DNA of 31,466 nt from a virus (taxonomy: Duplodnaviria; Heunggongvirae; Uroviricota; Caudoviricetes). The translations under genes and the position numbers were made by a program. The stretch is from the IMG/VR virus record IMGVR_UViG_2645727604_000022; one strand, written 5' to 3'. Below the pieces are notes generated by a model that saw only the letters and a program-made list of their open reading frames with translations, did not search any database and was not told the DNA's origin. Positions 1 through 30,098 of the stretch are shown piece after piece; within the stretch, counting starts at the first letter, position 1, and each line of letters opens with the position of its first letter.

Positions 1-1335
1 ATGCGTTACAATCAATTTTCACATTACAAACGCTCCGACACTTTAGCCGGGGAGTTTATGAGATACAAGCCCAATCAATACATAATCTGTGATTCTTACG
101 GTAACTACTATTTAAGGATCACGCTGCCTGTGTATATGCAGCCCTTTTTTGAAGGAAAAAGGACGTTTGTCAGAAGTCTACACACAAGTAATCTTCGTGT
201 TGCACGTAGAAAGCGTGATCAGATTGCAGATGAATACCATTGTCTACGGGAGAGTGTCGCCCCTGTAAACAGCACAATAGAGAACACGCTGGAACTGTTA
301 CGCAGTAAGGCTAAATACGCCAAAACAGCTACCAGAATGCAAGATACAGCGTCTTCGTGTCCGTCATTGCTTAAAATTCTTGAAATCTACCTGACAATTA
401 ACAGCACGAAGAAGAAGCCAGCCACTTTAGCTAAGGCAAGAAAAGCGGTAGAGATGTTTCTCTCCTACCGTAAAAAGCCTGATATTGCATTGCAAGATGT
501 AAGCCGCACCACTGTTACAGGCTGGATTGAACACATGCAAAAAACCCTTTCACAACAATCAATTGCAAATTATATCAGCCCAATGGCCCAGCTATGGGAA
601 TTAGCTTCATCACGTTACCACGATGCGCCAGAAAGGGCGCTCTCCCCCTGGCGAGGGCATAGGCTTGATGTGGCACAAAGTAGAGAGAGCTACGAGGCAT
701 TTTCTAACAAAGAGCTATTGCAGGTGTTGCAAGTATTTTCCGGTGATTCAGCAGAAAACAAAGAAATGATGGCTTTGTGTCTTATCGGTTTATATACAGG
801 TATGCGGATCAATGAGATAGCAAGTCTCACAATAGACGATGTGAAAGAGATCGAAGGTGTGCTGTGTTTTGAAATCACACAGGGAAAGACGAAAGCTGCG
901 GCACGTGTTGTGCCTGTACATAGCCTTATCACTCCGTTGGTGTTGTCGCTGCGTGAAAAGCCTCACAATGGCTTTTTGTTCTATCACGCCAGCATTACAG
1001 AGCGTGCTGATGGTAAACGTTCCACGTGGCACACGCAGAGATTTACAAGAGCTAAACGAAAGGCTTTAGGGGAAAAGGGAACAGAAAGGAAGGTGTTTCA
1101 TTCTCTGAGACACGGAGTAGCACAGCTTCTTGATCGAAATCAAATTCCAGAAGACAGGATCGCCCTTCTCCTGGGCCATACACGCGGCAATACAGAAACA
1201 TTCCGCACATATAGCAAGAATGCAGCTTCTCCGGTAGAGCTTAAAAACTATATTGAGCTTCTACGCTACCCTGAAATAGAGAAAGGCTTATCAATCAATA
1301 AAAAATCAAATTTAAGGCGTAAAACAACACCATAG
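1..1335 (+). CDS. int: Tyrosine site-specific recombinase / integrase (444 aa; may extend upstream of the window)
   Basis: Catalytic-type motifs GMRINEIASL (Arg box), HSLRHGVAQLL (HxxR) and LLGHTRGNTETFRTYSK (Tyr) in the C-terminal half; ORF starts exactly at the window edge. Confidence 0.8.
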   Translation: MRYNQFSHYKRSDTLAGEFMRYKPNQYIICDSYGNYYLRITLPVYMQPFFEGKRTFVRSLHTSNLRVARRKRDQIADEYHCLRESVAPVNSTIENTLELLRSKAKYAKTATRMQDTASSCPSLLKILEIYLTINSTKKKPATLAKARKAVEMFLSYRKKPDIALQDVSRTTVTGWIEHMQKTLSQQSIANYISPMAQLWELASSRYHDAPERALSPWRGHRLDVAQSRESYEAFSNKELLQVLQVFSGDSAENKEMMALCLIGLYTGMRINEIASLTIDDVKEIEGVLCFEITQGKTKAAARVVPVHSLITPLVLSLREKPHNGFLFYHASITERADGKRSTWHTQRFTRAKRKALGEKGTERKVFHSLRHGVAQLLDRNQIPEDRIALLLGHTRGNTETFRTYSKNAASPVELKNYIELLRYPEIEKGLSINKKSNLRRKTTP

Positions 1336-2164: not shown

Positions 2165-3991
2165 TTACCCGCCGTTAGATTGTCCTGATAAGCTGGTTAA
2201 TGTTAATGATTTCAAGAAGCTATCCCGACTTGCTCTCGCTGTAAAATCCACATAATCGCTTAATCTTGATGTGTCACTATTAATAGTAAGAGGAACCTCT
2301 GTTACCACTTCAAATGTAGGATTCAGATTGAATACAGGAGATAAATTATAAGCCGGAGTTGTCATTGCAAGATTATTTAAAGCACCCTGTTTGAGATTGG
2401 TTATCGGTGCTTCACTAACTGACATTTTTACATCTGACACAGAAGAATTATCATCGAAAAGCAATCCCTTAATCGTGTTAAAGAGAGAATGACTATTATC
2501 AGGTGTAGTTGTTGCAGTGCCAGCGCCTTTATATTGATCAGGAACGAGATTATCTAAATTCTTCTTCATCCCTTCATTGCTTAATGGCGGTGCATCACCC
2601 ATATTTTTTTGAATAGCATCTGTCTTATCATCATTACGATTAAACCAGTTTACAATCTTCATAATAGCTTCAAAGAGACTTCCTATAGCTTCTCCCAGCT
2701 TCGTAAAATACGGAGTGAGATTAGAAAGGTTTTTCATAAACTCTTCCGTTACTTTTGGATCGAGAGATTTCATAAACCCGTCTACGAATGCTACTTGCCT
2801 TGCATCAGAAAGCTGTGAAAGCTGTCTGTTTAGTTCTCTGAATTTAACGATAGATTCTTGCTGTGTTTCTGTTAGCCATTTTCCAGAGGCTTTTTGCTGA
2901 TTAATACTTTCTTGTACATCTTTAACGGAACGTTGCCAATATTTTGATGTAAGCATCAAATCATCGCCCAGATCTTCTAAACGTTGTCCAATTTGAGAAT
3001 CTGAAAACCCTTTTTTCATCATTCCATTAACAGCCTTAGAAATTAATCCGGCTGGATTATCAGCAAATTTTTTAAGGTCGCTTTTGTTAATAACACCGAT
3101 GTTTAGAAGTTCATTAATAGCGTTATCACCGCCTTTCCATTCAGATTTTCCTTTCTTGTCTTTCACCAATTCAGCTTCACTATAGGATTTTGCGGCACGT
3201 TCACGCACATCTTTCATCTGATCCAGGTATTTCCTAGCCCCTTGATCACCCATCATAGAGTCAACGCCGTTTCTATACGCCCATTCTGTAATATTATACA
3301 TCTGGTTAACGTCTACACCGCCCAGCCTTGCACGTTGAATTAGCTCCCCTTGCGTTTCAGCATTCGCAAAGCTGTTAGCCATAAATTCAGAGGTTTTACT
3401 AACAGCCATCACGCCAGCAGCCGCCGTAGCGCCTCCAAATAACAGAGCGCCCATAGTGGCGGAATTCCCTGCTCCTCCCTTAACGGGGGCTAATTGAGCT
3501 TTTCTGTTGCCATTAATCTTACGTTGTTGCTGTTGTAAGCGTTTCATCTGACTATTCATACGTGCAAGCGAGATAGCCCCTTGCTCATATTGTTTTGCTA
3601 TCTCTCTAGCCTGTGCAATAGCTTTATATTGTTCAGCTACAGAGAGGCGGTGCATTGCACTGATAGAGCTTGACACATCAAGGAGCTTTAATTCTGCTTT
3701 CTCTTTACGTGCTGCTATTTGTTGCTGTTGCCTTGCCTGTGCTCTTGCTGCGGCAGCTTGTGCTCTTTGATTTTGCTTTTCTGTTTTGGCTTTTTGCTGG
3801 GTAATCTTGTCTACTTCACTTTGTGCTTTCTTATAGCCTTTAGTGACGCTATCAAATCTTAATTTAGCTGGCTTGATGTTTTCTGCGAATTCCTTTAAGC
3901 CTGTAATAGAGTCTTTCGCTTTTTTTAAGCTGTCTTTATCTACACTAAATGTAACTGTGTTCTTAATTTTAGAAGTGTTAATTTCTAACAT
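2165..3991 (-). CDS. Hypothetical coiled-coil / glycine-zipper protein (608 aa), tape-measure-like or ejection-protein-like
   Basis: Q/A/R-rich coiled-coil stretch (QRAQAAAARAQARQQQQIAARKEKAELK), hydrophobic Gly-rich segment GALLFGGATAAAGVMAVS; SD AAGGGG 7 nt before ATG. Confidence 0.7.
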   Translation of the reverse strand: MLEINTSKIKNTVTFSVDKDSLKKAKDSITGLKEFAENIKPAKLRFDSVTKGYKKAQSEVDKITQQKAKTEKQNQRAQAAAARAQARQQQQIAARKEKAELKLLDVSSSISAMHRLSVAEQYKAIAQAREIAKQYEQGAISLARMNSQMKRLQQQQRKINGNRKAQLAPVKGGAGNSATMGALLFGGATAAAGVMAVSKTSEFMANSFANAETQGELIQRARLGGVDVNQMYNITEWAYRNGVDSMMGDQGARKYLDQMKDVRERAAKSYSEAELVKDKKGKSEWKGGDNAINELLNIGVINKSDLKKFADNPAGLISKAVNGMMKKGFSDSQIGQRLEDLGDDLMLTSKYWQRSVKDVQESINQQKASGKWLTETQQESIVKFRELNRQLSQLSDARQVAFVDGFMKSLDPKVTEEFMKNLSNLTPYFTKLGEAIGSLFEAIMKIVNWFNRNDDKTDAIQKNMGDAPPLSNEGMKKNLDNLVPDQYKGAGTATTTPDNSHSLFNTIKGLLFDDNSSVSDVKMSVSEAPITNLKQGALNNLAMTTPAYNLSPVFNLNPTFEVVTEVPLTINSDTSRLSDYVDFTARASRDSFLKSLTLTSLSGQSNGG

Positions 3992-4293: not shown

Positions 4294-5322
4294 TTATTTA
4301 ACAGTGATTTGAACGGAGAAGCCTACACCGTGGTTTACAACCATCTGGCTATTCTCTGTAACAACGTTAACAGCATCACCACGAGAAGATTCATAGCTGT
4401 AGCTGTACACCTCAGCAGGAGCGGTATTAATCAGTTCAAAAGTGCTGGAAGCCGCCCCATAGATGGCCTGGTAGACGTTAGAGCCTTTAGCGAATTTAGG
4501 CACGGCTACAGCGTCAGCGGTCATATGTGCAAGGTGTAGCGGATCTACCAGTTTAATAACATCAATGTTAGTTCCTGGAATAGTGAACGCTGTCACCCCC
4601 GGTAGCAGGTCACGACGCTGATACACAACGTTTCCCTCTTCCAGTGGGCTTACATACTGGAATGCGTTTGCCATACCAGCAGAGAATCGAATTGCAGAGA
4701 AGGCTTCCGGCTTACAGAAAACAACAATACGCTCTACAGCAGCCGCCTGGCTTTGTGCTTTTTCGATAATGTCAGTAGCAATCTGATCAAATTCTTTAAA
4801 AATCTTCGTGGTGTCAGTGCTGGAAGCGTTCACAGTGGCTTTCATAGCTGATACGTTAAACAGCTTGCCCCATTCGATAAGAACATCATCAGTTTTAGGC
4901 GTGTAAGTTTTACCGCTAAACAGAGATGCAGCCAACACGCTCTCTTTTGTACGCTGATACGCTACGTGGTGTTTAGCAACATAGTCAGCATAGATATCAG
5001 TGAGTGTTTCCTGAAAATCAGTGCCTGGCTTACGTTTGCCTTGAACATCAGAAGGACGGATCACATCTTCACGAAGAAAATACGGGATTTCAATCAGCCA
5101 TTCTTTACCTTGTTCTCGCTTAGTAACATTGTGTTCAGAAGAGAAACGAGAGGTTTCTTTGTTGAACAGAGATTCGTTGCTTTCGACAAGCTGGGAAACA
5201 GCTACTTTATGAGAACTAACGCCCACCGGATCAGTGAAGTCGAGGGTAGAGAGCAGATAGTTTCTAGTGCTATGCGCAGAGAACAAAGGGGCTAAATCAA
5301 CGTAATCATTACCTAGAATCAT
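4294..5322 (-). CDS. Hypothetical protein (342 aa), probably an abundant structural protein (capsid-like guess only)
   Basis: Long ORF; helical N-terminal half and beta-rich C-terminal half; followed by a strong terminator as is common for highly expressed structural genes; no diagnostic motif. Confidence 0.7.
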   Translation of the reverse strand: MILGNDYVDLAPLFSAHSTRNYLLSTLDFTDPVGVSSHKVAVSQLVESNESLFNKETSRFSSEHNVTKREQGKEWLIEIPYFLREDVIRPSDVQGKRKPGTDFQETLTDIYADYVAKHHVAYQRTKESVLAASLFSGKTYTPKTDDVLIEWGKLFNVSAMKATVNASSTDTTKIFKEFDQIATDIIEKAQSQAAAVERIVVFCKPEAFSAIRFSAGMANAFQYVSPLEEGNVVYQRRDLLPGVTAFTIPGTNIDVIKLVDPLHLAHMTADAVAVPKFAKGSNVYQAIYGAASSTFELINTAPAEVYSYSYESSRGDAVNVVTENSQMVVNHGVGFSVQITVK

Positions 5323-7425: not shown

Positions 7426-8115
7426 TTAAAATGGAATATCAAAGTCATCATACACATTTGGGTAATTCTTAGAAAAATATGCCTCAATACCATTTGGTAG
7501 CTTTAACCTGTGCTTATAGGCTAACGATGTTGCAAATTCTATAAATGATGCTCCTCCTGTTCTGGTATTCTTCTGCTTGATAATAAGAGATGCAAAATTC
7601 TCTAACACATCCTCCTCATTATCATTAGCTACCTTTTCACTTGATGAAACAGGTGTTTCTTCCGTCTCCCACGGCAAAGGCGCATCCCAATCATCAAGAA
7701 CATCAAAAGAAGGCTGTTTATGGCCTTTAGGTTGTTCCTGTGCTTCTTCTGCCTCAGAAAGATCAGAGAGTGATGATTCTCCTGGGGGAGTAATATGTGC
7801 ATCTGTGAGAGGGAGAGCATTGTAAATCAAAGATGAAATATACGGATCAGGATGTGGGGATGTTTCTAATAATCCCATCTCTTTAAGATCGTTTATCTTA
7901 CGTTTAATTGTTGACGCTGAAGACTTAAAAATCTTAGCTAATGTTTCGTGACTTTCATAACAATTAAGGTTGTTTTCCTGATAACTAAGGAATCGAAAAT
8001 AAAGCACAATATGTAATAGATCTAAATCTTTTCCTTGAGGGAATTTATCAGAATAAATCTTTGATACATTATCAAACGTGTCATAGTGTTTTGTAAAAGT
8101 TAGTTGATTAATCAT
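7426..8115 (-). CDS. Putative replication initiator / replisome-organizer-like HTH protein with SSB-like C-terminal tip (229 aa)
   Basis: HTH-like segment HETLAKIFKSSASTIKRKINDLKEMGLLE, acidic disordered middle, extreme C-terminus YDDFDIPF (E. coli SSB ends DFDDDIPF). Confidence 0.6.
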   Translation of the reverse strand: MINQLTFTKHYDTFDNVSKIYSDKFPQGKDLDLLHIVLYFRFLSYQENNLNCYESHETLAKIFKSSASTIKRKINDLKEMGLLETSPHPDPYISSLIYNALPLTDAHITPPGESSLSDLSEAEEAQEQPKGHKQPSFDVLDDWDAPLPWETEETPVSSSEKVANDNEEDVLENFASLIIKQKNTRTGGASFIEFATSLAYKHRLKLPNGIEAYFSKNYPNVYDDFDIPF

Positions 8116-8353: not shown

Positions 8354-8542
8354 TTACTCTGTTTCAGATTCTTTTTCATTTTTTCTTAGTTCATCAATAA
8401 TCTTGAGTGCTTCATTGAAGCAAGCTGCTCGCTCTGGATAACCTCGACTCCTTGCCATATTACGATTCATTACTACTTGATGGCGTGTAAGCTCACCTTT
8501 TTTAAATGCCTCTACGACGTGTTTCGGTGTAAACCATTTCAT
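8354..8542 (-). CDS. Hypothetical small protein (62 aa), first gene of the minus-strand operon
   Basis: ORF with a candidate sigma70 promoter about 100 bp upstream. Confidence 0.45.
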   Translation of the reverse strand: MKWFTPKHVVEAFKKGELTRHQVVMNRNMARSRGYPERAACFNEALKIIDELRKNEKESETE

Positions 8543-8652
8543 AAAAAACTCCTTATTCAGTTAAAAGAAAAAACACCTTGCAAGCCTGACGGCTTCAAAG
8601 TGCATTGATTTTGATTATTTAGAGAAGAATGTTTTCTGTCCCTCTAATACCT

Positions 8653-8681
8653 ATTATTACATATAAAGAAACATTTGTCAA
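8653..8681 (-). promoter_or_regulatory. Candidate sigma70 promoter for the 8542-to-6256 operon
   Basis: On the minus strand TTGACA, 17-bp spacer, AATAAT. Confidence 0.3.
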
Positions 8682-9240
8682 TACCTTTTCACAAAAAATC
8701 TGATCTTTTTCATGCACTTACATTTTTTCTTAGCAATTCGTGCTCTCCTGTGTGGTGCTATTCTTCATTATCCGCTAAAACGCTCTAAAACGCGTTCTAA
8801 CGAGGTTTTGATAAAAGCAATACATTCCCTTATGTAATGGCTGTTTAGCTCGCCAGAGGCTTATTTAAGGGGCTTATTTTGTATTTGTTAGGTATATGAA
8901 AAGGTAATGGTAGATATAAGATAGAGAGTCACTTTATAAAACGCCCTGTAAAGCCCTGTAGTGAGTTTATTATATGTAGGCAATGCGTTTCCATTCCCTA
9001 CCCTGCTTAATGCTATTAGAGAAGCATTTAGACCCCTTATTTTTAATTAATTAAAGTATCCTCTATACATTCCTGTTATGAAACACCTCTGAATCCTTCA
9101 TAAAACACATTATGACGCAAAGAACACTTTTCTAAGGTGATTCCCTTCCTGAATGCTGTTTCTTGCGTCAAAGAGCTACACAGAGCTTATAAAGCTATTA
9201 TTAATAATAAAGTAGATAAGTAAGATAACTAAGATAGATA

Positions 9241-9660
9241 AGATTAATAAGATCAGAATTCTCTTTCGGTGTCGCCTCTGGCTTTTCCACCGAAAACAAT
9301 TACACAACTACAGAGAATAACGAGAGTTATTAAATGTAGAAAGTGGAATTGTATTGAGGCTTAGTGAAATTACACGAGGAAAGCAGAGTGTAATTGAGCT
9401 TTAGCCGCTCTCTCTTCGAGTAATTACACAACTACAGAATGTAGAAGTGGAATTAAGAGTTAGAGTTAACACATAAGCAATCAGTATGATTGGTTAGGTG
9501 ATTACTCTTCTGCGCACAGCGCAATAGATTTCTTCGTGGGCGTTATCGCCAACGAAGTTACACGAAGAAAGTAACGCTTTGCTTTCGGTGTGAGCGGAAC
9601 GGGCCAGCCACGAAGCCCAAAGGTAGCGGAGTAAGGCTGCTTGCCAGAGAGTGAAGCTAA
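9241..9660. other. Structured, relatively GC-richer non-coding block with nested hairpins and TGTGTAAT/AATTACACA motifs (possible regulatory RNA or protein-binding array)
   Basis: Hairpins TTTCGGTG...CACCGAAA, AATTACAC-N12-GTGTAATT, CTTCGTGGGCG-TTAT-CGCCAACGAAG; direct repeats AATTACACAACTACAGA at 9297 and 9422; no ORF of 60 aa or more. Confidence 0.3.
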
Positions 9661-9769
9661 CGCCGGAAGGCAAAAGATCATATATATATATAGATATAAA
9701 GAATATTATTATTATGATCTAATTAATAATCTAATATAGTTTTATTAATAGTCTTATTGTAGTTCACAG

Positions 9770-9845
9770 TGACCTACCCCCTAGCTCACTATGACCTACC
9801 CCCTAGCTCATAGTGAACTACCCCCTAGCTCATAGTGAACTACCG
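9770..9845. repeat. Iteron array: about 3.5 tandem copies of a 22-bp unit TGA(C/A)CTACCCCCTAGCTCA, next to an AT-rich tract (9660-9760); candidate replication origin
   Basis: Units start at 9770, 9792, 9814 and 9836 (22-bp period); the preceding tract is almost pure A/T including ATATATATATATAGATATAAAG. Confidence 0.6.
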
Positions 9846-10318
9846 TTACTACCAATCATCACATAGCACTCTGTGTAATGCCTTTCTATGTGTGTGCCAT
9901 AATCCCCTATATTCCCTGTGTAAATCATAGAATATCCCTAACTTATTCCTGTGTAATTCCATACTAAAAATTCAATGAAAAGTAGCTTAAAAGTGCAATT
10001 CTTACTTTCTTCACTTTTACATCACTTTCGCAAAGCCTTGTGTAGTGCGGCTTACAGAGCACCATCAGAAATTGTTGGCTAAAAATTGTTCTGCTTGTTT
10101 CTGAATGAGTTTTCTCGTTTGTGCAAATTTTAAAATTTATTTTGTTTTTACAGCCTTATTTCGTGTAATGCGTGGCATAGCAAGCCCTTTTCTTGTGTTG
10201 TCAAGACATTTGGCAACGTTCAAACATCTGTTTAGAAATGCCAAATTGTTGATCTAACAAATAAACCTGTATAAACAGAACACTATTTAATCTATTCCCC
10301 TGTGTATCCATTAGGCAT

Positions 10319-10426
10319 ACCAAATGAATACATCTAAATCGTGTAATATTCCGTACCTATAAGGCTTGAAACAGACCAAATGAATACGATATACTCATTT
10401 GCATTGGAGTAGTGCCAAATCGATAC
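10319..10426. promoter_or_regulatory. res-like recombination / autoregulatory site upstream of the serine recombinase gene
   Basis: Three direct copies of ACCAAATGAATAC-like 13-mer (10319, 10375, 10414); the middle one forms a 25-bp palindrome CAAATGAATACGATATACTCATTTG. Confidence 0.45.
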
Positions 10427-10440
10427 ATTAAGGGGATTTT

Positions 10441-10980
10441 ATGAGCAATATCGGTTATAAGCGTGTGAGCACTGTAGATCAGAACACTGATCGCCAGCTT
10501 GCAGGAGTAACGCTTGATAAAGTCTTTGAAGATAAGCTGTCAGGTAAAGACACTAACCGTCCAGGATTGCAGGCGTGTTTATCCTATCTGAGAGAAGGCG
10601 ACACCTTACACGTGCACTCTCTCGACCGTTTAGGGCGTAACACCTTAGACATTCTTGCCTTAGTGGAACAACTTAATAATCGAGGTGTAATTGTTCGATT
10701 TCATAAAGAAGGGATCATTGCAGACATTACAAGCGCGATGGGAAAAATGATGCTTACGATGTTGTCGGCAGTTGCAACGTGTGAACGTGAACTGATGTTA
10801 GAGCGTAAACGAGAAGCGCAAGCCGTCAATCCTACAAAGCGTGGTAATGGAAAAGCAGTAGATAGAGAAGGTATAAAGAAAGCCCTTTCTGATGGCCTGT
10901 CAGTGCGTAAAACCGCCGAGAGCTTTAATGTTGCTCCTTCAACGGTACAGCGAATTAAGAAGGAAGAAGAGGAGGCGTAA
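10441..10980 (+). CDS. Small serine recombinase (resolvase/invertase family), 179 aa
   Basis: N-terminus MSNIGYKRVSTVDQNTDRQ with catalytic-Ser context, FEDKLSGKDTNRPGL and GDTLHVHSLDRLGRN match the Hin/resolvase family pattern; SD AAGGGGA upstream. Confidence 0.9.
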   Translation: MSNIGYKRVSTVDQNTDRQLAGVTLDKVFEDKLSGKDTNRPGLQACLSYLREGDTLHVHSLDRLGRNTLDILALVEQLNNRGVIVRFHKEGIIADITSAMGKMMLTMLSAVATCERELMLERKREAQAVNPTKRGNGKAVDREGIKKALSDGLSVRKTAESFNVAPSTVQRIKKEEEEA

Positions 10981-10996
10981 TGCCTCCTTGATATTT
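10970..10996 (+). terminator. Putative intrinsic terminator overlapping the recombinase stop codon
   Basis: Hairpin AGGAGGC-GTAAT-GCCTCCT followed by a T-rich tract. Confidence 0.45.
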
Positions 10997-11421
10997 GGGG
11001 ATTCTGGATTTTCCAGATCGGGGGGCGCTGAAAATCGCGTTAAGCACCTCTCGCAATCTAGCCATAAGGGAGGGGATTCATATGTATTTAGATGTATTTA
11101 TAGCTATTTATGGCTATTTATGGCTATTTATTTTTTATTTATCTTTATTTAAAAATAACCTTATAAATCAATAAGATACAGAACTATCTGTTTATATTTT
11201 AATCAATTAAATCAAGTTTAATACCCTTAAATACCCTAAAAATAGCCTTAAATACCCCAATAATTAATTTTAAGGCTTTCCGTGTTCTCTTCTGCATTAT
11301 GAAAATGCAAAATAAGGCACAAAACAAGCTCACAGACGCATTAAACACACATCACCTATACACCCCTATACCAAGCAATGAAAACAGCGTTAGAATGCGT
11401 CCTGTTGCGTTCTGGAGATTT

Positions 11422-11580
11422 TCAGAAATCCTCTCTAAGCCATTTCAACTCACTAAGGAGTTTTCTTTCTTCGTTCTCTCTCTGTTTACGCTCTAACCAG
11501 GCTTTTCCTTCTGGCGTAGACAGGAACTTACGAGCGTGAATCTTGCGGTTATTACGTTTTATAGCTGCAATGTTTTTCAT
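11422..11580 (-). CDS. Possible small basic protein (52 aa); not in the ORF track
   Basis: Hand translation MKNIAAIKRNNRKIHARKFLSTPEGKAWLERKQRENEERKLLSELKWLREDF; AGAGG 6 nt before the ATG. Confidence 0.25.
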   Translation of the reverse strand: MKNIAAIKRNNRKIHARKFLSTPEGKAWLERKQRENEERKLLSELKWLREDF

Positions 11581-12183
11581 CGTGTGCCTCTGTATTCATA
11601 TGAAAATTAACAAGTTACATACTACACAGGGAGACTACGCATAAAACACAATACAAGTAAAGATACATTTTCAAGACAATAGGAGCCATAAAGCGCCTTT
11701 GATGGTTATACCAAAAAATAAGCGCCGTAGGCGTATCCACTAAAAAGGGCTTTTTCACAAAAGCTATGAAGTCTTAGCAGTTCTTCTCTTATCAGGCACC
11801 CGTTGTACTCCGGTGGACGAAACCGTGCTAGAGCTTGATTCTTTCCCGATCAAGTTAGGTTTTGAAGAGGTGGGCTTTAATCCACTATTGCACTTAAAAC
11901 TCTTCCCATCATTTAGCCTGTTTATCCTCTGCAACGTCTCACGACGTGTGGCATCATTGGACACCGCGCCAGGTGTGGAACATCTTGCTAAGAGTTTTGG
12001 TAGAAGGTTTAGAGACGGTGGCACGTCTTCCAGCTTCAAAGGAACTTGTTACGAGGTTGAGCCTGGGAACTACTCGCCCATACGTGTTACACTACCAAAG
12101 CCCATAACAACGTATAGGCGTTTGTAAGTGATAACAGAAGATACAATTTCTTAGAGAAGTTAAGCTAAGTTATTGATTTTCTT

Positions 12184-12202
12184 AATGGTGCCGATAATAG
12201 GA
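12184..12202. repeat. attL: 19-bp copy of the tRNA-Thr 3' end
   Basis: Identical to 30021-30039. Confidence 0.6.
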
Positions 12203-12263
12203 ACAATACACATAGGCGATAAGCTTTGTTTTTGTTGCCTTTTTTATTGTTCATTTTTTATAG

Positions 12264-12288
12264 ATACCCCCAAAAGTACCCCCATATC
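12264..12288. repeat. Tandem TACCCCCA half-site motif ATACCCCCAAAAGTACCCCCATATC, left-end copy (candidate integrase arm-type site)
   Basis: Near-identical copy (21 of 22 positions) at 29889-29913 in the same orientation. Confidence 0.4.
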
Positions 12289-12313
12289 TTTTTCCGCCCC
12301 TGAAATTTGGTTG

Positions 12314-12725
12314 TTATTCATACAGCATATCAGGCGGTAACGCTCTCCCTTTAACCCACTTATTGTATGATAGTGCTATCCCACAATAAGGAATCAGCCA
12401 GCCATGAGAATGACCAGCCGCAAAAAAGAGATACTTAGCTACTTTGAACCGGATAACCTCGAATGGGTGACTGGTGAGATTGGTGCGCCGCCCATAGTGG
12501 CGTGATTGCCGCGTTACCCATGCTTTCATCCTCACCCCATACGCGATACTCGCTACCTGGATCACCTTTACGCCCTTTCTCGAACATATACAGGTGTTCG
12601 TCATTCCAGCCAAAAGCTAACTGGATCACGGCATGAAGTTTACTAAAGGGGATTTGCTCTGGAACCAGCACACGCCGCCATATAGGTGGTTTGCTGTCTC
12701 GGATGGTTATCTTTAGCTGGTACAT
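12314..12725 (-). pseudogene. Frameshifted gene resembling the pRiA4b ORF-3-like family
   Basis: N-terminal frame MYQLKITIRDSKPPIWRRVLVP...AFGWNDEHLYMF continues in a second overlapping frame carrying YLFFAAGHSHGWLI; family assignment is from memory. Confidence 0.45.
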
Positions 12726-15522: not shown

Positions 15523-17640
15523 CTAGTCATTATCTGGATCATTAGATAGCCAAGTAATGATGCCCAGTCTGGCGATGGTCCGTTTTTCCTGTTCAGGAAG
15601 AGAGTTAAAAAAACTCTTCCATTGAGGGGAGCGCCTGATACGTGAATCAACAATGTGCCCAGGCGCTTTTCCGTGTAGATTTTTTACTGCGCTCTGGAAG
15701 GCTGGCGAGGCAATTAATTTATCCGCAGCATCAGCCGCCCCTGCTCCACCAGCTAATCGAGCTTTACTCGCCAATCTTGCTCCAATATCAGCCCCAGCAA
15801 TGGCTCCAAGCGATCCAAAATGAGCGCCTACCATCGTGCCTATTTTTTGAATGTGTTTTGCTGCTAGTTCGTATGGAGCTGTTACCCGATTAAATCTGTT
15901 TACAAACTCATTCAGCTTACCAGTAGATATTTCATGCGCTTTAGCATTTTTTATTGCTCTGGCAACTTTGTATACATCATATAGTCCGCTCATTGTTTCT
16001 TTTGGCAAATGTTCAGCCAAAGTCTTTAGCTGTCCACTGTGTTGCAAGTTTTGCCACCAATCTGCAAAGCCAGATGGATTAAAGTCGGCCCCACGCTTCC
16101 CAGAGGAAAGCATATCTCTTAATGCTGTTCCTACTAGCTCCCTTCGCAATGTTCTTGATGGAGTATTTTGCATAATCTCACGAAACCCTCTCGCATCACC
16201 TTTTGCCATAGATTGAAGAGAATTCGTTACTTTATACGCTATATCCCCATTAAGTGTTTTCCCGCGAAGATTTACCATTTGCCTTTCTAAGTTTTTTCTC
16301 ATAGCTACAAGGCGTTGTGCGACTTCGAAATCTCGCAAGTATCCAGTATTGGATAAGACAGATTTTTGGTCTTCAGCTAAAGCTCCATATAGTCTTGATA
16401 GCGCTTCTTTATCAGCATCTTTGTATGGCCCCTGCTTTTTATTTAGGGCATCACCAACTAAACGCCTTTGCCTGTTTAAATTTGCATACGTTAGGATTCT
16501 ATCTGGGCCGGGGTTTATTGCTGTAAAAACTCGCTTTTCTATTGGGTCAAGATTATCCCACCCTCCTAAATCATCAGCGATTTTTTCCAGCATAGTGCTT
16601 GTGTTATTTGCTTCGACTTTTGTTCTTGGTGATAGAGCGGAATCAACACGTTTATATAACTGATCACTACGGTTTTTTAGTGCTTCCATTCTACTATTTA
16701 TCTGATAAATATATTTTTCGCTCATAGCTAACGCATCTGGCGCACCAGCAACATCATCGATTATCTTGCCAGCACTAGAGGCTAATTCGCTTATTGCTTT
16801 ATCTTCTTGAGCTTTTAACGCTGATCCTGTCCGTGACTTTAGGGCTTGCTCTACAGCTTGGTATTGCTCATTTCCTGATAAATGAGAAGGAAGAACTGAA
16901 TCAACATGAAGCCTATTTGCAGCCTCAACAATTTCTTTCTGAGGTTTTAGATCTAGCCCTTCAAGCGAAGAGGCAAGATTTGGGTTGCCTTGTGCAGATA
17001 ACTTACGAATTTTCTCTTCGGCAGGAGTAATCCCCTCAATATCTGGAATCGAAGAAACATTCTTCTTGGTTAATTTCCCAGCTATTTTATTAATTGCAGG
17101 GCCAGCAAGTTCGGCTACAGGGCCAGCCACAGCGCCAATAGCAGCGCCGGAAGCAACATCGCTATTTGTTCCATTGGCTACAATAGCCCCTTCTCCAGCA
17201 CCAAGCCCTGCGGCGGCAGCCAGTCTTGCCGCCCCTTTGGGAACCTGAGAAATAATCCCACCACCACTAACAAATGGCGCTGCTTGTCCAACGAACTCAC
17301 CAACATCTTGTGCGGTTGATGGTTTTGCCGCTAACTTCTGCTGTAGAGACTGAATTGCGGCTTGCTCTTCTGGTGTCATATCCTGAAACAGGCCAACACC
17401 TTTACCAACATCCATCAATCCACTGAGAACGCCATACATAAAACGGTCGAAACCGTTAGCATTATTAACAACATTTTCCTGTCTGGAATTTTCCTCTGGT
17501 GAAACCAAAGGTGATTGCTGCTGTTCTGGTTGGGCATCAAGCACAAAACCATCAGGAAGCTGTGAACTATCAGGAAACTGTGAGTTATCAGGTTGTTCAT
17601 CGAGCACAAAACCTTCCGGTAAGATTACATTTGCTGCCAT
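15523..17640 (-). CDS. Hypothetical large Gly/Ala-rich coiled-coil protein (705 aa), last gene of the LexA-box operon
   Basis: N-terminal repeats PEGFVLDEQP / PDGFVLDAQP, long Gly/Ala zipper segments, no P-loop or nuclease motif found. Confidence 0.75.
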   Translation of the reverse strand: MAANVILPEGFVLDEQPDNSQFPDSSQLPDGFVLDAQPEQQQSPLVSPEENSRQENVVNNANGFDRFMYGVLSGLMDVGKGVGLFQDMTPEEQAAIQSLQQKLAAKPSTAQDVGEFVGQAAPFVSGGGIISQVPKGAARLAAAAGLGAGEGAIVANGTNSDVASGAAIGAVAGPVAELAGPAINKIAGKLTKKNVSSIPDIEGITPAEEKIRKLSAQGNPNLASSLEGLDLKPQKEIVEAANRLHVDSVLPSHLSGNEQYQAVEQALKSRTGSALKAQEDKAISELASSAGKIIDDVAGAPDALAMSEKYIYQINSRMEALKNRSDQLYKRVDSALSPRTKVEANNTSTMLEKIADDLGGWDNLDPIEKRVFTAINPGPDRILTYANLNRQRRLVGDALNKKQGPYKDADKEALSRLYGALAEDQKSVLSNTGYLRDFEVAQRLVAMRKNLERQMVNLRGKTLNGDIAYKVTNSLQSMAKGDARGFREIMQNTPSRTLRRELVGTALRDMLSSGKRGADFNPSGFADWWQNLQHSGQLKTLAEHLPKETMSGLYDVYKVARAIKNAKAHEISTGKLNEFVNRFNRVTAPYELAAKHIQKIGTMVGAHFGSLGAIAGADIGARLASKARLAGGAGAADAADKLIASPAFQSAVKNLHGKAPGHIVDSRIRRSPQWKSFFNSLPEQEKRTIARLGIITWLSNDPDND

Positions 17641-18923
17641 TTTCCGTTCCTGTAAATGATTTTCTGACCAGTTTTAGGGTTGGTTGCCGTTGCGCCTTCT
17701 GATATTCCTCCGGTTGCCGCTTTTGCCTGTCCAGTGCCAGCCTGTGATGTAGGCTGCCCGGAAACATCGTCAAATAGCTTCGCTTTCCTTCTTTCAAGGC
17801 TTTTTCTTAGCCCCTGAGGAATAGTTTCTCCATATGTATCGAGATACTCGTCAACCTGCTGGTTAAACTGCTGCCCCATAGCATTGGCGTTGATTTTTGC
17901 GGCGTTAACAATGTTATCCTTTGCCTCCTGCGACAGGCCGTTTCCAGCATTAAGCTGGTCTATGTATCCTTTGATTTGTCCCCATATGCCATCAGACCGC
18001 ATTACCTGAACCTGTTCGCCTTCACGAACGACTGACTGCGGGTCAAGAGATTTCATGTAGTTGAAGATAATCCCAAGTTGGGCAGCGCCAGTATTTACCT
18101 TGCTAAGGGCTTGCAGAGAGTTTGCCGCCGCTCTGACAGAGTTATAATTTTTGCCAAAATTGGTAATGTCAGAATTTAATCCCTTAATTAAGTCTGCTGA
18201 CGGCTTACCTTTTTGCCCCAGCTCCATTAGCTTCAATCCCATCTCATCTGAGTGAATTTGTGCTCGCTGAGCCCTGTCTAGTTGAGCGTTCTGGATATTT
18301 GCCCATCCTCTCGCGTTCTCCATGTCAGCCTGACGCATACTTTCATCCAGTCGCCCTTGCTCAAGTCGACGACCTTCCATTTGATCTTTGATATCGAAAT
18401 ACTTCTCATGACCGAGAGAAAACAGTGCCATACTACCAGCAAGCCGCTGGAACCCCTGTGGATCATTAACATGCATTTCGGCAACAGACTCAGGAGAAAT
18501 TCCCAAGCGACGCATTTCATCTTCGTTATCTGCTATGAATTTTCCAAATGCCCCAGTTCCGAGCGAAGATGCGATTTGAGCACTAGTCGCAAGATGACCA
18601 ATAGAATTTCTCTGGTCGTCATCAATAAAGCCCATCCCTTTCTGAACGCTTTCAAATTCTTCTGGATACTCAGAAATAAGACTGCGCATTTTGTTTCTGT
18701 CTCCAGACTCAAAAGCCCCGGCATATGCTTTCTGAAACTCTGCTTTACGCTGTTGTTGACGTGCCTGCTGATTAATCTCAGCAACGCCTCTTAGCCCCTG
18801 TAGCGCCATTAAACCTACGTTTGGCTGCTGCTGATACTGCACAGGCTGAGGAACGGAAGAACGAGGAGCATTATCATTTTGCGGTGCCATGCTAGGCAGC
18901 CCGCCAAGTTGCCATGTCGCCAT
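17625..18923 (-). CDS. Hypothetical coiled-coil protein (432 aa)
   Basis: Q-rich N-terminus; overlaps neighbouring genes by a few nt (translational coupling). Confidence 0.75.
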   Translation of the reverse strand: MATWQLGGLPSMAPQNDNAPRSSVPQPVQYQQQPNVGLMALQGLRGVAEINQQARQQQRKAEFQKAYAGAFESGDRNKMRSLISEYPEEFESVQKGMGFIDDDQRNSIGHLATSAQIASSLGTGAFGKFIADNEDEMRRLGISPESVAEMHVNDPQGFQRLAGSMALFSLGHEKYFDIKDQMEGRRLEQGRLDESMRQADMENARGWANIQNAQLDRAQRAQIHSDEMGLKLMELGQKGKPSADLIKGLNSDITNFGKNYNSVRAAANSLQALSKVNTGAAQLGIIFNYMKSLDPQSVVREGEQVQVMRSDGIWGQIKGYIDQLNAGNGLSQEAKDNIVNAAKINANAMGQQFNQQVDEYLDTYGETIPQGLRKSLERRKAKLFDDVSGQPTSQAGTGQAKAATGGISEGATATNPKTGQKIIYRNGKWQQM

Positions 18924-19600
18924 TAGAATCCAAGCCCCCCAACAAGACCAATAAGCCCACCACCAATAGCGCCGGCCGCAGTTCCTATTCCAGGAACAAC
19001 GGAACCAAGTTGCGCACCCGCTAAAGCGCCTGATGCTGCCCCACCAATACCACGCGCAAGACTGGATGGCTGCTGCGCCTGACCTGCACGAATAGCGCCA
19101 AGCCCCTGCAAGAGTTGTCCGGTATTATTGGCGTAGTTTTGCCCTGCCGTTGCCTGCCCTGATGCCGCATTCATCCCGACATTTAGCAGGTTTCCATAAT
19201 TTTGCATTTGCCCACTAAGCCAATTGTTATAAAGCATGGGCGCAATGGAAGATAACTGGTTACTGGTAGCTGTTGAGCCAAGCCCCCCGGTAGCTTCTGC
19301 TGAGACAAGGTTCTGATAACGGGCCTGATCTGCCTGTGTTTTATATAAACCAGAACCAAAGAAATCATTCGCGGCTTTATTCTGCCCTTCCAGAGTCATC
19401 AGTCCTTGTAGTTGTTGTAAAGCAGGCAATCCGACTTCTGCATACGGCTTGAGATTATTCATCACCGTATTCCACTGCTCGCGCTGCAAATCAATTGCCT
19501 GCTGCTGGGCCTTCGCCTGAGCTTTAGAGGCACCACCATCACCGCCTTTTTCGTATACGGCACGATTGAGATGTTTATGAGCTATATGGGTAATTAACAT
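18923..19600 (-). CDS. Hypothetical protein with extremely Gly-rich hydrophobic C-terminus (225 aa)
   Basis: C-terminus GIGGAASGALAGAQLGSVVPGIGTAAGAIGGGLIGLVGGLGF. Confidence 0.7.
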   Translation of the reverse strand: MLITHIAHKHLNRAVYEKGGDGGASKAQAKAQQQAIDLQREQWNTVMNNLKPYAEVGLPALQQLQGLMTLEGQNKAANDFFGSGLYKTQADQARYQNLVSAEATGGLGSTATSNQLSSIAPMLYNNWLSGQMQNYGNLLNVGMNAASGQATAGQNYANNTGQLLQGLGAIRAGQAQQPSSLARGIGGAASGALAGAQLGSVVPGIGTAAGAIGGGLIGLVGGLGF

Positions 19601-20817: not shown

Positions 20818-23577
20818 TCATTCTTCAGATGAGTTATAATCTCCTGGCTGGTAATTGAGTACATAAACGTTTATTTGTCGTCCCTGAATACGTGGTGATT
20901 TTCTTTGGTATCCACGACCGCTGTTTGGTGGGGTTAGCATCCCGGCTTTTTTCAACACTTCAGCAAACTGTTTTGCGTTGAAACCACATGCGATCTCCTT
21001 TTCAAATGTGGCCGGGAATGTGTAGAAAATCATTGGGCTTTCGTCATGTTCTCCACGCTGACGGTATCCGGCTAAATCTTTGATGGGCAAATCTGCCGGG
21101 CTGTATGGAAATGGTGCAAAACGGCTAAGCCCATAGGCATTAAGAAATGCCTCCGTTTGTTCAATAATCTGCTGATGCTCTTTGTTACCTGTGCCGAACT
21201 CGCGCAACCATGCGTTATAGCTGTGCTGTATCGCATCACGGCATGTCTGAGCATCCCAGCCTGTTACAACCTCGCCTAACAACAATGCGGCCTCCAGAAT
21301 GGCAAATCGCGCGGCTACACGGTGAACCTGCTCACCATAATCGGATGGGATCAGGCTTCTCCATCTGCTTTCGCAGTCACGAACGGTTTTAATAGCCTGT
21401 TGCTGGTGGTCTGCCAGCCATTTAATCCACTCACGCCCGGACGCGCCGTGGTGATGCTGGTAAGCGTCTTTCAGTGCGTCTGCGTGCTGTTTTCCGTTCT
21501 GGTAATCGTGAAAGCGTACTGCTTTACTCAACGGAATATTCAGCAGTCGCACCAGTTGCCCGGCTTTGGTTTTTCGCCCGGAAGTAGCGATAAATGTTTC
21601 TAAATCCATTTCTCCGGTGCTGATTGCCACTGTACGCCAGCGTTTTAGATCCCGGTTTCCACCATCTTTAGCGCCTTGCAGTTTCCCTACACCGTTAAAT
21701 AACGCATAGGCAGACTGTGAGACGCTGACAGGATCAGCGCCCTGACCAACTTCATCAAGCGGCATTAGTCCGTCATTGTGGGCGGCGGCCTCATTTGCCA
21801 GCCCCAGCGCGGTTCCGTACCACGTCAGCCGCAGTAAATCAGGGTTGCCGTATAAGCTGCTCGCCACGTTTGCCGTGGTGGTCTTACCTGCGCTCGACTG
21901 CTCATAGAAATGAATGCCGAACCCGTCAGCGCCCACCAGCCCAATCAATGGCGCTGCCAGTGCTGCGCCGATCCCGGTCATCATTGAATAGTTACCAAAG
22001 GACAGACGCGCCACGTTATCACGCCAGCTTTTCTCGCTCCCTGAGACGGTATATCCGGCTGCGGCTGAGCTTCTCCCGCTGAACAGCACAGGATTTTCAG
22101 GTGTTCCGATGATTTCCCCATCAGGCATGATGTACGCTCCGCATTGCCAGCCAGTGGCATGAGCAACACGCCACAATTCACGAGAGCCACTGCGTTGTAG
22201 CCAGTCTGCCAGTATTGCTCTGAGGCTGCTTTTGGTCGTGACATTTACCCCACCAGCTTTAAGTGTGCGCCATCCTTCACGTTCACCAATATCAGCCAGT
22301 GGAATGGCAGCGGTTGTCGGCGTTTCAGAACCAAACGACAGCCAGCGAAGAATGAGATACTGGTCTTTATCGTCTCTGCCAGTACCGATAACGCTTAACG
22401 GAGAACATAACCAGCTTTCGTTATTGATGATTTCTCCACTCTGGCTGTCAGCTCTCGGAGATACCCAATAAATACCATCCTCGCGGCTTTCTATTCTTGG
22501 TTTCAGTGGATCGGTATCCATAACCTTAAAATCGCTTCCCTCAATGGTCTGTGGCTCCTGTTTCACGCCATTACCCTGTGGTTGGTACATTGACTTATTG
22601 AACGCTTCTGTGGCGCATTTAATGCCGTGTTTTTGGTGGTAATCATTCCAGTCTGCTTTGTGATCTGTCGGGGGTAATGCCACCCATCCAGAAACAGATA
22701 AAGCTGCTTTTTCTGCTGCTATTCTCCCCGTGTTTTGTCTTCCTTCGCTGTGGTCGTTATCCGCAGCAATGATGATTTGTGCTGAAGGAAATTTATCCCG
22801 CAGTACCTGGGCGACATATAACAGGTTCCCGGCATCAATCGCCGCCACTGTCAGCGCCTCTGGACGCATTAAATGGGCAGATAATGCCGTTGCCAGCCCT
22901 TCTGCGATTAAGATGCTCTGTGTTGTTTCTGGTGCGTTTATGGCGTGATATGCCCCTCGCTTTGCTGAACCTGTCAGGAGTCTTTTTTCACCATGTGAGG
23001 TAATAGTCTGTGCTGCTGTTACTGCGCCGGATTTATCCACCAGCGCCAGCAACAGAGATCCATCGGGCAACACGGGGAATGTAAAATCACCTACCCCTTT
23101 CGCAACCAGATAATCAGATTTGCCGTTTACAGCCTTTCTGCGCATGTCATCAAACTGACGGGAAAACGTATCCCGTCTTTGTTGTTCGTCCTTCTCTGCC
23201 CTTTTCAGGCGCTCCTGTTCGCGTCGCTGGCGCTCGGTTTCCAGTTGTTCCCGTTTCTGGCTGGTGGCTTCTGGTGTTTCCGTTGTCCGGTAATCAATAC
23301 CCAGAACATCAGCGGCAAGAAGCGCCGCCTCTGTTGTGTCGCAGTTATTTACGCGTTTAATTAAATCCAGCCCATCACCAGCGCCGCACTGATTACAGAT
23401 GAAGCTACCGCGCCCGTTGTCATCGAACCGGAATCGATCTTTGCCCCCACATGCAGGGCAGGGAGCATGACGGCGCGGAGAGTCAGGGACATTTATGTTC
23501 AGGCAGCCCAGCACATGAGGCCAGTTGTTTTCAGACGCACTGATAACCTGACGGATAAGATCAATGTTTCGCATCAC
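20818..23577 (-). CDS. P4 alpha-like primase-helicase (919 aa)
   Basis: N-terminal zinc-ribbon CPACGG...CNQCG, P-loop YEQSSAGKTTT; size and context typical of satellite/island replication proteins. Confidence 0.85.
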   Translation of the reverse strand: MMRNIDLIRQVISASENNWPHVLGCLNINVPDSPRRHAPCPACGGKDRFRFDDNGRGSFICNQCGAGDGLDLIKRVNNCDTTEAALLAADVLGIDYRTTETPEATSQKREQLETERQRREQERLKRAEKDEQQRRDTFSRQFDDMRRKAVNGKSDYLVAKGVGDFTFPVLPDGSLLLALVDKSGAVTAAQTITSHGEKRLLTGSAKRGAYHAINAPETTQSILIAEGLATALSAHLMRPEALTVAAIDAGNLLYVAQVLRDKFPSAQIIIAADNDHSEGRQNTGRIAAEKAALSVSGWVALPPTDHKADWNDYHQKHGIKCATEAFNKSMYQPQGNGVKQEPQTIEGSDFKVMDTDPLKPRIESREDGIYWVSPRADSQSGEIINNESWLCSPLSVIGTGRDDKDQYLILRWLSFGSETPTTAAIPLADIGEREGWRTLKAGGVNVTTKSSLRAILADWLQRSGSRELWRVAHATGWQCGAYIMPDGEIIGTPENPVLFSGRSSAAAGYTVSGSEKSWRDNVARLSFGNYSMMTGIGAALAAPLIGLVGADGFGIHFYEQSSAGKTTTANVASSLYGNPDLLRLTWYGTALGLANEAAAHNDGLMPLDEVGQGADPVSVSQSAYALFNGVGKLQGAKDGGNRDLKRWRTVAISTGEMDLETFIATSGRKTKAGQLVRLLNIPLSKAVRFHDYQNGKQHADALKDAYQHHHGASGREWIKWLADHQQQAIKTVRDCESRWRSLIPSDYGEQVHRVAARFAILEAALLLGEVVTGWDAQTCRDAIQHSYNAWLREFGTGNKEHQQIIEQTEAFLNAYGLSRFAPFPYSPADLPIKDLAGYRQRGEHDESPMIFYTFPATFEKEIACGFNAKQFAEVLKKAGMLTPPNSGRGYQRKSPRIQGRQINVYVLNYQPGDYNSSEE

Positions 23578-28642: not shown

Positions 28643-29857
28643 TCATGCGTGTTTTTCAAACACCATATGCACCACATTTCCGCCATGCTCGAGAGAATCC
28701 ATATAGTCGGCATACCATTGAAGCATCTCCCGCCTTCCATCCAGATATTGCGCATGGTTGTATGTGCCACGAATTGAGTTCTTATCAACGTGAGCGAGCT
28801 GCGTTTCTATCCACGCGGTGTTATAGCCCTGCTCATGCAAAATCGTACTCATAGTGTGCCGGAACCCATGACCAGTTACACGTCCAGCGTAGCCAATGCG
28901 CTTAAACACTTGGTTTATGCTGGCCTCACTCATTGTTTTCCTTGGATCATTGCGCCCGGGAAACATAAGAGGGTAATTGCCTGTTATTTCTCTAATCTTC
29001 CCAATAAGCGAAAGAGCCTGATCAGACAATGGCACAATATGAGGCCGCCGCATTTTCATACGTGAAGCGGGTATCTCCCAGATAGCCTTGTTGAAATCAA
29101 TTTCATCCCATAATGCGCCACGTAGTTCGCCAGTCCGCAAGCCGGTGATAATCAGTAGACGAGCCGCCATAACAACCAATGCGCTTCCTGAGTAACTGGA
29201 CAATGCCTTGAAAAAATCAGGTAATTCTTTAGCTGTAAGGAAAGGGTAATGATTAGATTCATGGCCTTGCATCGCGCTAGTAAGGTCTGGTGCAGGGTTA
29301 TACTCTGCGCGACCAGTGACTATTGCATAGCGGAAAACTTCCCCGCACCGCTGCCTCACTTTTTTGGCTTTTTCTGTAGCACCGCGCCCCTCGATGCGCC
29401 GCAGCACATTCAGAAGTTCAAGTGGTTTGATTTCGGCGATTGGTTTTTTGCCAATGTAAGGGAACACATCTTTGTTGAAGGCTTCGAGGATGTCTGAAGC
29501 ATAACCAGCAGACCATTTTTTTAATTTGCTGCTGTGCCACTCAAGGGCAATATCTTTGAAGGTGTTGTTTAACTGCGTTTCCCGGGCAATCTTTTCCTCT
29601 CGTTTCGCTTCCATCGGATCGATACCACCAGCGATACCTCTTTTCGCATCTTCACGTTTTGCCCGAGCATCGGCTAGAGTAACCTCAGGATACACACCTA
29701 GTGCCAATAGCTTCTCTTTACCAGCTACACGATATTTAAGTCGCCAGTATTTACCTCCATTAGGTTTTACCAAGAGATACAAACCGCCACCATCGGCCAG
29801 CTTGTAAGCCTTCTCTTTTGGCTTGGCTGTGTCTATTTGACGGGCATTGAGTTTCAC
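28643..29857 (-). CDS. int: P4-type tyrosine integrase (404 aa)
   Basis: N-terminus MKLNARQIDTAKPKEKAYKLADGGGLYLLVKPNGGKYWRLKYR typical of tRNA-targeting P4-like integrases; catalytic HGFRHT and Tyr region near the C-terminus; adjacent to tRNA. Confidence 0.9.
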   Translation of the reverse strand: MKLNARQIDTAKPKEKAYKLADGGGLYLLVKPNGGKYWRLKYRVAGKEKLLALGVYPEVTLADARAKREDAKRGIAGGIDPMEAKREEKIARETQLNNTFKDIALEWHSSKLKKWSAGYASDILEAFNKDVFPYIGKKPIAEIKPLELLNVLRRIEGRGATEKAKKVRQRCGEVFRYAIVTGRAEYNPAPDLTSAMQGHESNHYPFLTAKELPDFFKALSSYSGSALVVMAARLLIITGLRTGELRGALWDEIDFNKAIWEIPASRMKMRRPHIVPLSDQALSLIGKIREITGNYPLMFPGRNDPRKTMSEASINQVFKRIGYAGRVTGHGFRHTMSTILHEQGYNTAWIETQLAHVDKNSIRGTYNHAQYLDGRREMLQWYADYMDSLEHGGNVVHMVFEKHA

Positions 29858-30020: not shown

Positions 30021-30039
30021 AATGGTGCCGATAATAGGA
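30021..30039. repeat. attR: 19-bp core overlapping the 3' end of tRNA-Thr
   Basis: Identical to 12184-12202. Confidence 0.6.
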
Positions 30040-30098
30040 GTCGAACCTACGACCTTCGCATTACGAATGCGCTGCTCTACCAACTGAGCTATATCGGC
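30023..30098 (-). tRNA. thrW: tRNA-Thr (anticodon CGU)
   Basis: Reverse complement reads GCCGATATAGCTCAGTTGGTAGAGCAGCGCATTCGTAATGCGAAGGTCGTAGGTTCGACTCCTATTATCGGCACCA; 7-bp acceptor stem, anticodon loop TTCGTAA. Confidence 0.9.

Follow-up and report, generated by a model that had tools for sequence, protein, structure and literature searches.

What does a small serine recombinase, preceded by an array of short repeats, do in a phage-related island that has a tyrosine integrase of its own? The locus lies in a 31,466-nt stretch of DNA, referred to here as the window, which is E. coli chromosome beside thrW and proA (tRNA-Thr at 30023-30098, proA at 30213-31466). Several islands are stacked there at tRNA-Thr, and the recombinase sits in the left-most of them, which measures ~12.2 kb (window 1 to ~12202). 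The original prediction read the gene and its repeats as a res-like site with its resolvase, serving multimer resolution of a replicating circular form, and left an invertase role open.

The recombinase ORF occupies 10441-10980 on the plus strand and encodes 179 aa, with a catalytic domain followed by a C-terminal HTH. In Pfam, PF00239 (Resolvase) matches residues 4-128 at 1.1e-33, and HTH_38, HTH_23 and HTH_7 match residues 141-175, below the Pfam cut-offs and at the right position. Alignment to known proteins gave bit scores of 105 for gamma-delta resolvase, 102 for Tn3 resolvase, 96 for Gin and 67 for Sin; the gamma-delta, Tn3 and Gin alignments are full-length, the first reaching residue 175. 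The segments GYKRVST (containing Ser10) and LDRLGRNT align to GYARVST and LDRLGRDT of gamma-delta, and the catalytic motifs GYxRVST and LDRLGR are fully conserved. At the positions of the Tn3 regulatory interface (R2, R32, K54 and E56), numbered by our reading of the alignment with Tn3-type recombinases, the protein has S, K, Y and R. With a catalytic N-domain, a short C-terminal HTH and a total length in the ~180-200 aa class, the ORF reads as a genuine, intact small serine recombinase, as had been proposed for these coordinates. A Shine-Dalgarno-like AAGGGG, read from the sequence, lies at 10430-10435 on the plus strand, 5 nt before the ATG, and a GC-rich hairpin over the stop codon (AGGAGGC-GTAAT-GCCTCCT, 10970-10988, strand unassigned), which was scored on the minus strand, is a possible terminator. 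In a genome-wide species scan, the best full-length relatives outside Escherichia were ~50% identical to the recombinase.

The repeats upstream of the gene comprise three directly repeated 13-mers, CCAAATGAATACA at 10320-10332, CCAAATGAATACG at 10376-10388 and CCAAATCGATACA at 10415-10427, all within 1 nt of where they were first placed. The motif also occurs inverted, as two strong copies (TGTATCCATTAGG at 10303-10315; TATACTCATTTGC at 10390-10402) and one degenerate copy (CGTACCTATAAGG at 10352-10364) that matches the consensus at 7/13 positions. Together the six half-sites form three dyads. Site I, the putative crossover site, spans 10303-10332 as TGTATCCATTAGG-CATA-CCAAATGAATACA (13+4+13 = 30 bp), its centre falling between A and T at 10317/10318. 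Site II, a putative accessory site with a degenerate left half, spans 10352-10388 as CGTACCTATAAGG-11 nt-CCAAATGAATACG (13+11+13 = 37 bp), and site III, likewise a putative accessory site, spans 10390-10427 as TATACTCATTTGC-12 nt-CCAAATCGATACA (13+12+13 = 38 bp). The array measures 125 bp in the order I-II-III, with site III adjoining the gene; a 19-bp linker separates sites I and II, whose centres are 52.5 bp apart. The original prediction of three direct repeats beginning at 10319 was thus right about the repeats and needed correction on their extent, since the array starts at 10303, and on their arrangement, which is that of three dyads with inverted copies. It had also called one 13-mer palindromic; the third 13-mer merely contains ATCGAT, and the true dyad symmetry lies between half-sites.

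The 13-mer repeats go well beyond what chance would give. A scan for outward-facing pairs, with a matrix that included the window's own sites, scored site I at 38.1, site III at 32.0 and site II at 23.4, the next-best pair in the window reaching 18.3. A second matrix was built only from half-sites of two related loci, L094 and L096, and run over the whole 31,466-nt window on both strands; its five best matches all fell inside 10303-10427, and because the first matrix contained the window's own sites, this is the only one of the two results that is independent. For the best half-site outside the array, at 11591-11603, no partner was found. Three dyads built on one half-site motif with differing spacers are the pattern of Tn3/gamma-delta res, here recognized by sequence pattern only and with a weak II-L. 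On this pattern, the array has a Tn3/gamma-delta-like res layout with a geometry of its own.

This layout is shared with relatives. The upstream regions of L094 (82% protein identity) and of L096 and L097 (69%) align with the window without an indel across sites I-III, and in L096 all six half-sites are clear, II-L matching the III-R of this locus perfectly in inverted form. The 13+4+13 geometry of site I recurs in L094, L096, L013, L104 and the plasmid pDETEC86, and the 13+12+13 geometry of site III in L094, L096 and pDETEC86. Three dyad sub-sites in the Tn3 order and a layout held in common with relatives are consistent with the res-like site that had been predicted upstream of the gene. The half-site words themselves differ. 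I-R and III-R co-vary by lineage, reading AATGAATACA / AATCGATACA in the window, GATCGCTACA / AATCGCTACA in L094 and TATGAACACA / TTTGAACACA in L096, and further words occupy the 30-bp site I of an O104:H4-type cassette (63% identity; TGTAGTGATAAAG), of L104 (58% identity; TGTTGYAAT...) and of pDETEC86 (56% identity; TGTAGTAATATAC). Likeness between half-sites was 0.69 within a locus versus 0.58 between loci, a difference reached by 0/5,000 label permutations, and 0.76 versus 0.51 at half-site positions 4-8; because sites were picked by eye for each locus, the within-locus figure is biased upward and is descriptive only. The start of the predicted recognition helix varies as well (PSTVQRI, RSTVQRI, TQTVQRI, TRTVQNI). 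As far as these alignments tell, each lineage has its own half-site sequence on a fixed layout, and such half-site 'dialects', at least four on one scaffold, could serve the study or engineering of DNA recognition by serine recombinases.

Within this family the gene-proximal end of the array can take another form. In the O104-type cassette (L013 4520-4660) and in pPSS-11_2 (L132 2640-2814) it consists of two direct half-sites and not of a dyad, an arrangement that is Sin-like (PMC9943657) and recalls Sin site II, so that the recombinase family may span both res styles. The window's array shares with Sin/beta res the combination of a serine resolvase with accessory sites; it differs in that its sites are all inverted dyads and three in number, and the protein scores just 67 bits against Sin.

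The array also overlaps what appears to be the promoter of the gene. A promoter-like pair is predicted on the plus strand at 10366-10395, with a -35 TTGAAA at 10366-10371, an 18-nt spacer and a -10 TATACT at 10390-10395; it agrees at 10/12 positions and is the sole promoter-like match in 10150-11300. The TTGAAA-18-TATACT pair is invariant in the four aligned homologous loci, as are GGCTTG and TATACTCATTTGCAT in the same four-way upstream alignment. Half-site II-R fills the promoter spacer and half-site III-L covers the -10, so that bound protein should block its own promoter, as in Tn3/gamma-delta. Autoregulation by the recombinase is, judged from this overlap, part of the best reading of the array.

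Compared with Tn3, whose sub-sites are 28/34/25 bp with an I-II centre distance of about 53 bp, the window has sub-sites of 30/37/38 bp, site III being much longer, and a centre distance of 52.5 bp. The two systems have in common a small serine recombinase with a C-terminal HTH, dyads I-II-III directly upstream and a promoter-like pair inside the array. The res of Tn3, which has three dimer sites, measures 114 bp (PMC2602789), against 125 bp here; the I-II linker is 22 bp in Tn3 (PMC9943657), against 19 bp here, and the Tn3 sub-sites have relative spacer differences of their own (PMC9943657). Unlike Tn3/gamma-delta, the locus has no tnpA and no terminal inverted repeats, the interface residues are not conserved, and protein identity is moderate. 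No transposase domain occurs in the island ORFs scanned or in the island's RefSeq annotation, and no Tn3-type terminal inverted repeats, which in that transposon family are ~38 bp long, were seen in the island, the edges of the cassette being site I and the stop codon. In outline, then, the array appears to be a Tn3-type res that is neither a copy of the Tn3 res nor part of a transposon. Since site III is 38 bp and the interface residues differ, the synaptic architecture cannot be assumed to be the same as that of Tn3. Tn3/gamma-delta-type systems act solely on res sites in direct repeat within a single supercoiled molecule, and their product is a 2-noded catenane.

Similarity alone cannot separate a resolvase from an invertase, since Gin (96 bits) is nearly level with gamma-delta resolvase (105 bits). 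An invertase of the Hin/Gin/Cin/Pin type belongs to the same protein superfamily and would flip the segment between site I and an inverted partner to switch the expression of something nearby. Enzymes of this type act, with a Fis-dependent enhancer, on two inverted sites that bound a segment present in both orientations. PHROG 125, which carries the label 'DNA invertase', matches the recombinase, and an inverted repeat with a 15/16 match (10324-10339 / 11086-11101) brackets the gene in a way that would suit such a reading. The downstream arm of this repeat, however, scores below 8.6 as a half-site and is kept in islands without the recombinase. A query with 10318-11093 flipped was searched in 5,426 complete E. 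coli genomes, and 0/5,426 spanned either junction of the inverted arrangement; wherever the flipped query matched, in 493 genomes, its middle lay on the opposite strand from its flanks, and the 11 loci first examined were all co-linear. No partner site was found by matrix and dyad scans of the 31,466-nt window or in the first 50 kb of phi92, and no orphan res copy was found in the 157 carrier genomes. The three-dyad array directly upstream is the pattern of a resolvase and not that of paired 26-bp invertase sites, and no tail-fibre gene, surface gene or other switchable gene lies nearby. The search for an inverted partner that the original prediction called for has therefore come back empty in the window and among the carrier genomes, and with no partner site, no inversion and no orphan res, the invertase role that it had left open is now the least credible of the readings considered here.

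The island around the recombinase has the make-up of a phage-related element with a predicted replication module. Its tyrosine integrase (1-1335, plus strand; DUF6538 + Phage_integrase) is followed on the minus strand by a Dit-like/tail-tube-initiator protein (1417-2130), a tape-measure-like protein of 608 aa (2165-3991), a lambda-E-type major capsid protein (4294-5322) and a replication-initiator-like HTH protein of 229 aa (7426-8115). The last of these matches phrog_270, 'replication initiation protein', at 2.6e-9, together with O-like and DnaD-like families and HTH_36. A 22-bp iteron-like array of 3.9 copies lies at 9760-9844 (strand unassigned), with AT-rich repeats of 8-12 nt before it at 9675-9758. 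The island also holds small ORFs, and ~1.2 kb beyond the recombinase it ends in a 17-nt copy of the tRNA end. The tyrosine integrase had been described as lying alongside the recombinase; the two do share an island, but the integrase is 9 kb off, at the other island end. The window has a further integrase, of the P4 type (28643-29857), which is part of another island. An identical recombinase protein occurs in islands at five or more chromosomal contexts, so the recombinase is not the integrase and does not choose the integration site; the loci with the identical recombinase adjoin proA-proB-phoE-crl.

Between the Rep-like gene and res, ~1.9 kb (8542-10300) is free of ORFs and contains repeats, the iterons and a CCTGTGTAA motif at 9915, 9948 and 10298; it is probably the replication origin, though large for one. 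An Rfam search of window 8400-12400 gave no match. Elsewhere in the window, on the minus strand at 15523-19600, P22-type ejection genes (gp7, PF25688, 6.6e-73; a gp20-like translocase, PF16928, 6e-48; and a 705-aa ORF) adjoin a P4-like satellite with a primase (20818-23577), Ash and the integrase at 28643-29857; no other P22 structural genes were found in the window.

Related recombinases are found on small circular replicons. The closest relatives sit on 2-6 kb plasmids. One is carried by a 4.3-kb element that is circular by a 141-nt terminal overlap and permuted contigs; another is on pDETEC86 (L131, NZ_CP116175.1), a circular E. coli plasmid of 1,985 bp on which the recombinase, with its own three-site array, is the only annotated gene. 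A homologue is also present on two more ~2-kb E. coli/Salmonella plasmids (1,952 and 2,000 bp). The recombinase gene is all that these small plasmids and the island have in common, and an Rfam search of the plasmids gave no match and no RNAI. Related islands outside E. coli (L102, L103) have a 60%-identical recombinase at the corresponding place, behind ~2 kb of non-coding DNA. The order in such islands agrees with that in the window: a gene of 185 aa, assigned to the Rep-like slot by its position, comes first, followed by ~2 kb of non-coding DNA and by the recombinase.

Res/resolvase pairs on small circular replicons are known to maintain these as monomers, and RK2/RP4 ParA-res is a plasmid multimer-resolution system of this sort with a serine resolvase. 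The window resembles such systems in having a stand-alone res and resolvase beside a replication module, and departs from them in that the carrier is an integrated phage-related island in whose family the cassette is optional. It is a known kind of res/resolvase module in a somewhat unusual carrier; a literature search found no paper on resolvases in phage satellites.

The site layout, the Rep-like gene with its iterons and the relatives on 2-4 kb circles are all consistent with the multimer resolution originally proposed. We consider that the cassette (10303-10997) is probably a res/resolvase unit that resolves multimers of the island's circular replicating form to monomers and regulates its own expression. 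In the following scheme, binding to DNA, the position of the crossover, the need for direct repeats, repression and a circular replicating stage are inferred. The tyrosine integrase (1-1335) would supply excision, and the excised island, replicating from its Rep protein and iterons, would at times form a dimer or higher multimer, which is the presumed substrate. Dimers of the 179-aa recombinase would bind the three dyad sub-sites upstream of their own gene, and where two direct copies of the 125-bp res lie on one supercoiled circle, the accessory sites would assemble a synaptic complex. Strand exchange would take place at the central A and T of site I, and site I x site I recombination would return the multimer to monomers, while the recombinase would repress itself through II-R and III-L on its own -35/-10 region. 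The integrated, single-copy island would show no reaction, because there is no partner site.

Several observations weigh against resolution of multimers. Neither a circular nor a multimeric form of the island turned up: in viral contigs, a scan for the site I pattern returned only prophage predictions from isolate genomes, and among metagenomes 15 contigs had the site I pattern and 0 had a terminal overlap. Two metagenome contigs of about island length (12.6-12.8 kb) carry the tRNA-Thr flank and represent islands broken at the tRNA repeat. Site II-L is weak, with 7/13 positions, and if a helper phage packages the island from concatemers with terminal repeats, resolving them is not obviously advantageous. 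The cassette can, moreover, be dispensed with.

This last point follows from comparison of the islands. The res and gene form an exchangeable cassette on the plus strand, delimited at 10303-10997 by homology limits, filler replacement and flank changes: L094 shares exactly 10303-10997 with flanks otherwise unrelated, L012 has 383 nt of unrelated non-coding DNA in place of 10307-10988, and in L106, L107, L108 and L015 the right flank differs after 10997. Counted over complete E. coli genomes, 157 have this cassette in the slot, 296 the O104-type cassette (63% identical) and 334 the non-coding filler. The filler in 334 genomes indicates that the island's life cycle does not require the cassette, which is an optional module of the island. 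That the 383-nt filler might be a decayed recombinase gene was ruled out, as it gave no tblastn match and has no half-sites.

Sharp edges, a slot that frequently lacks a cassette or carries another one, and relatives that live on small plasmids could also describe a legacy or selfish cassette that came from a small plasmid or transposon, regulates itself and plays no role in the island's life cycle. Such a reading does not sit easily with the state of the cassette where it is present. E. coli copies of the recombinase gene differ at 10-31 nt and at 0-7 aa, site I varies at 1/30 positions among 11 E. coli copies, and gene and sites are intact in 156/157 carrier genomes; by these counts, with mostly synonymous change in the gene, the cassette is under purifying selection where present. 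The 60%-identical homologue at the same position in islands of other bacteria (L102, L103) and the lack of a transposase and of Tn3-type inverted repeats in the island also speak against it, and we regard a purely inherited passenger as unlikely.

At 10306/10307, within site I-L, lies the left boundary of the presence/absence polymorphism, and half-sites cover the promoter. This might suggest a protein that acts chiefly as a DNA-binding regulator or that promotes the exchange of modules, with the array as an operator or a hotspot for swapping the DNA on its right and with recombination as incidental. Against this, the protein keeps its catalytic motifs in full, the breakpoint lies away from the centre of site I, where a junction made by the recombinase would be expected, and the right edge at 10988-10997 has no site. 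We give this explanation very little weight.

Resolution of multimers thus remains the preferred reading of the cassette, and its carrier raises a further set of observations. Downstream of the gene, in segment 10988-11066, window 11017-11056 is a 40-nt exact match to phi92 nt 318-357, with a shared TTGATATTTG in addition. The matching sequence lies across nt 343, where the 343-bp left direct terminal repeat of phi92 has its inner edge; it is found in 61 records, mostly phi92-like (Justusliebigvirus) phages, and is kept in islands without the recombinase. The 40-nt segment may mimic a packaging or cleavage site of the helper. Still further downstream, within 11082-11264, are inverted arrays with a 10-nt period (TATTTATGGC x3.7 at 11095-11131 and AATACCCTTA x3.7 at 11220-11257); these arrays, downstream of the recombinase and of the phi92-like segment, could be a protein-binding site for packaging or partition. 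The island's Dit-like/tail-tube-initiator protein is 58-61% identical to a protein of ~146-148 kb phi92-like phages, and the same phages have proteins with 34-36% identity to its 608-aa tape-measure homologue. The terminal-repeat match and the tail genes suggest that the ~12.2-kb island is a satellite of phi92-like phages with tail-length genes of its own. The island's capsid protein (4294-5322) is unlike phi92-like capsids; its only phage matches are ~25% identical capsids, nearly all of them from Pseudomonas phages, those listed being 90-99 kb, so that the tail and head genes of the island seem to be of different origins. Phi92 itself encodes a resolvase/invertase-family protein of 220 aa, gp053 (L130 19493-20155), which has no evident function in a lytic phage of ~148 kb; derivation of the recombinase from gp053 was ruled out, the two being 32% identical over 81 aa only. 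From the sequences compared, the carrier island looks like an undescribed satellite family of phi92-like (Justusliebigvirus) myoviruses, and a literature search found no paper on satellites of Justusliebigvirus.

With res ~600-700 nt from the 40-nt copy of the phi92 terminal-repeat edge, a candidate packaging site, and with helper-like tail genes in the island, a double role like that of Cre/lox can be imagined, in which res x res recombination would circularize a terminally redundant or longer-than-unit incoming satellite without RecA, in addition to resolving dimers. This idea is an analogy and no more. A three-site res in the style of Tn3 normally requires a supercoiled circle, whereas injected DNA is linear, and many islands are without the cassette; we judge such a double role improbable. 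A broader proposal, which we hold to be somewhat less doubtful and still speculative, is that the cassette marks a plasmid-like stage of a widespread family of satellites of phi92-like phages, the resolvase either circularizing longer-than-unit transduced DNA or balancing monomer circles, for maintenance, against concatemers, for packaging by the terminal-repeat machinery of the helper.

A slot that holds this cassette, a 63%-identical cassette or filler is a natural experiment on what a phage satellite gains from a resolvase. The carrier island is of more interest than the cassette, whose value is as a clue to the island's life cycle: the presence of a resolution cassette beside a Rep-like gene and iterons argues that the island, which hundreds of E. 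coli genomes carry, exists for some of the time as a replicating circle.
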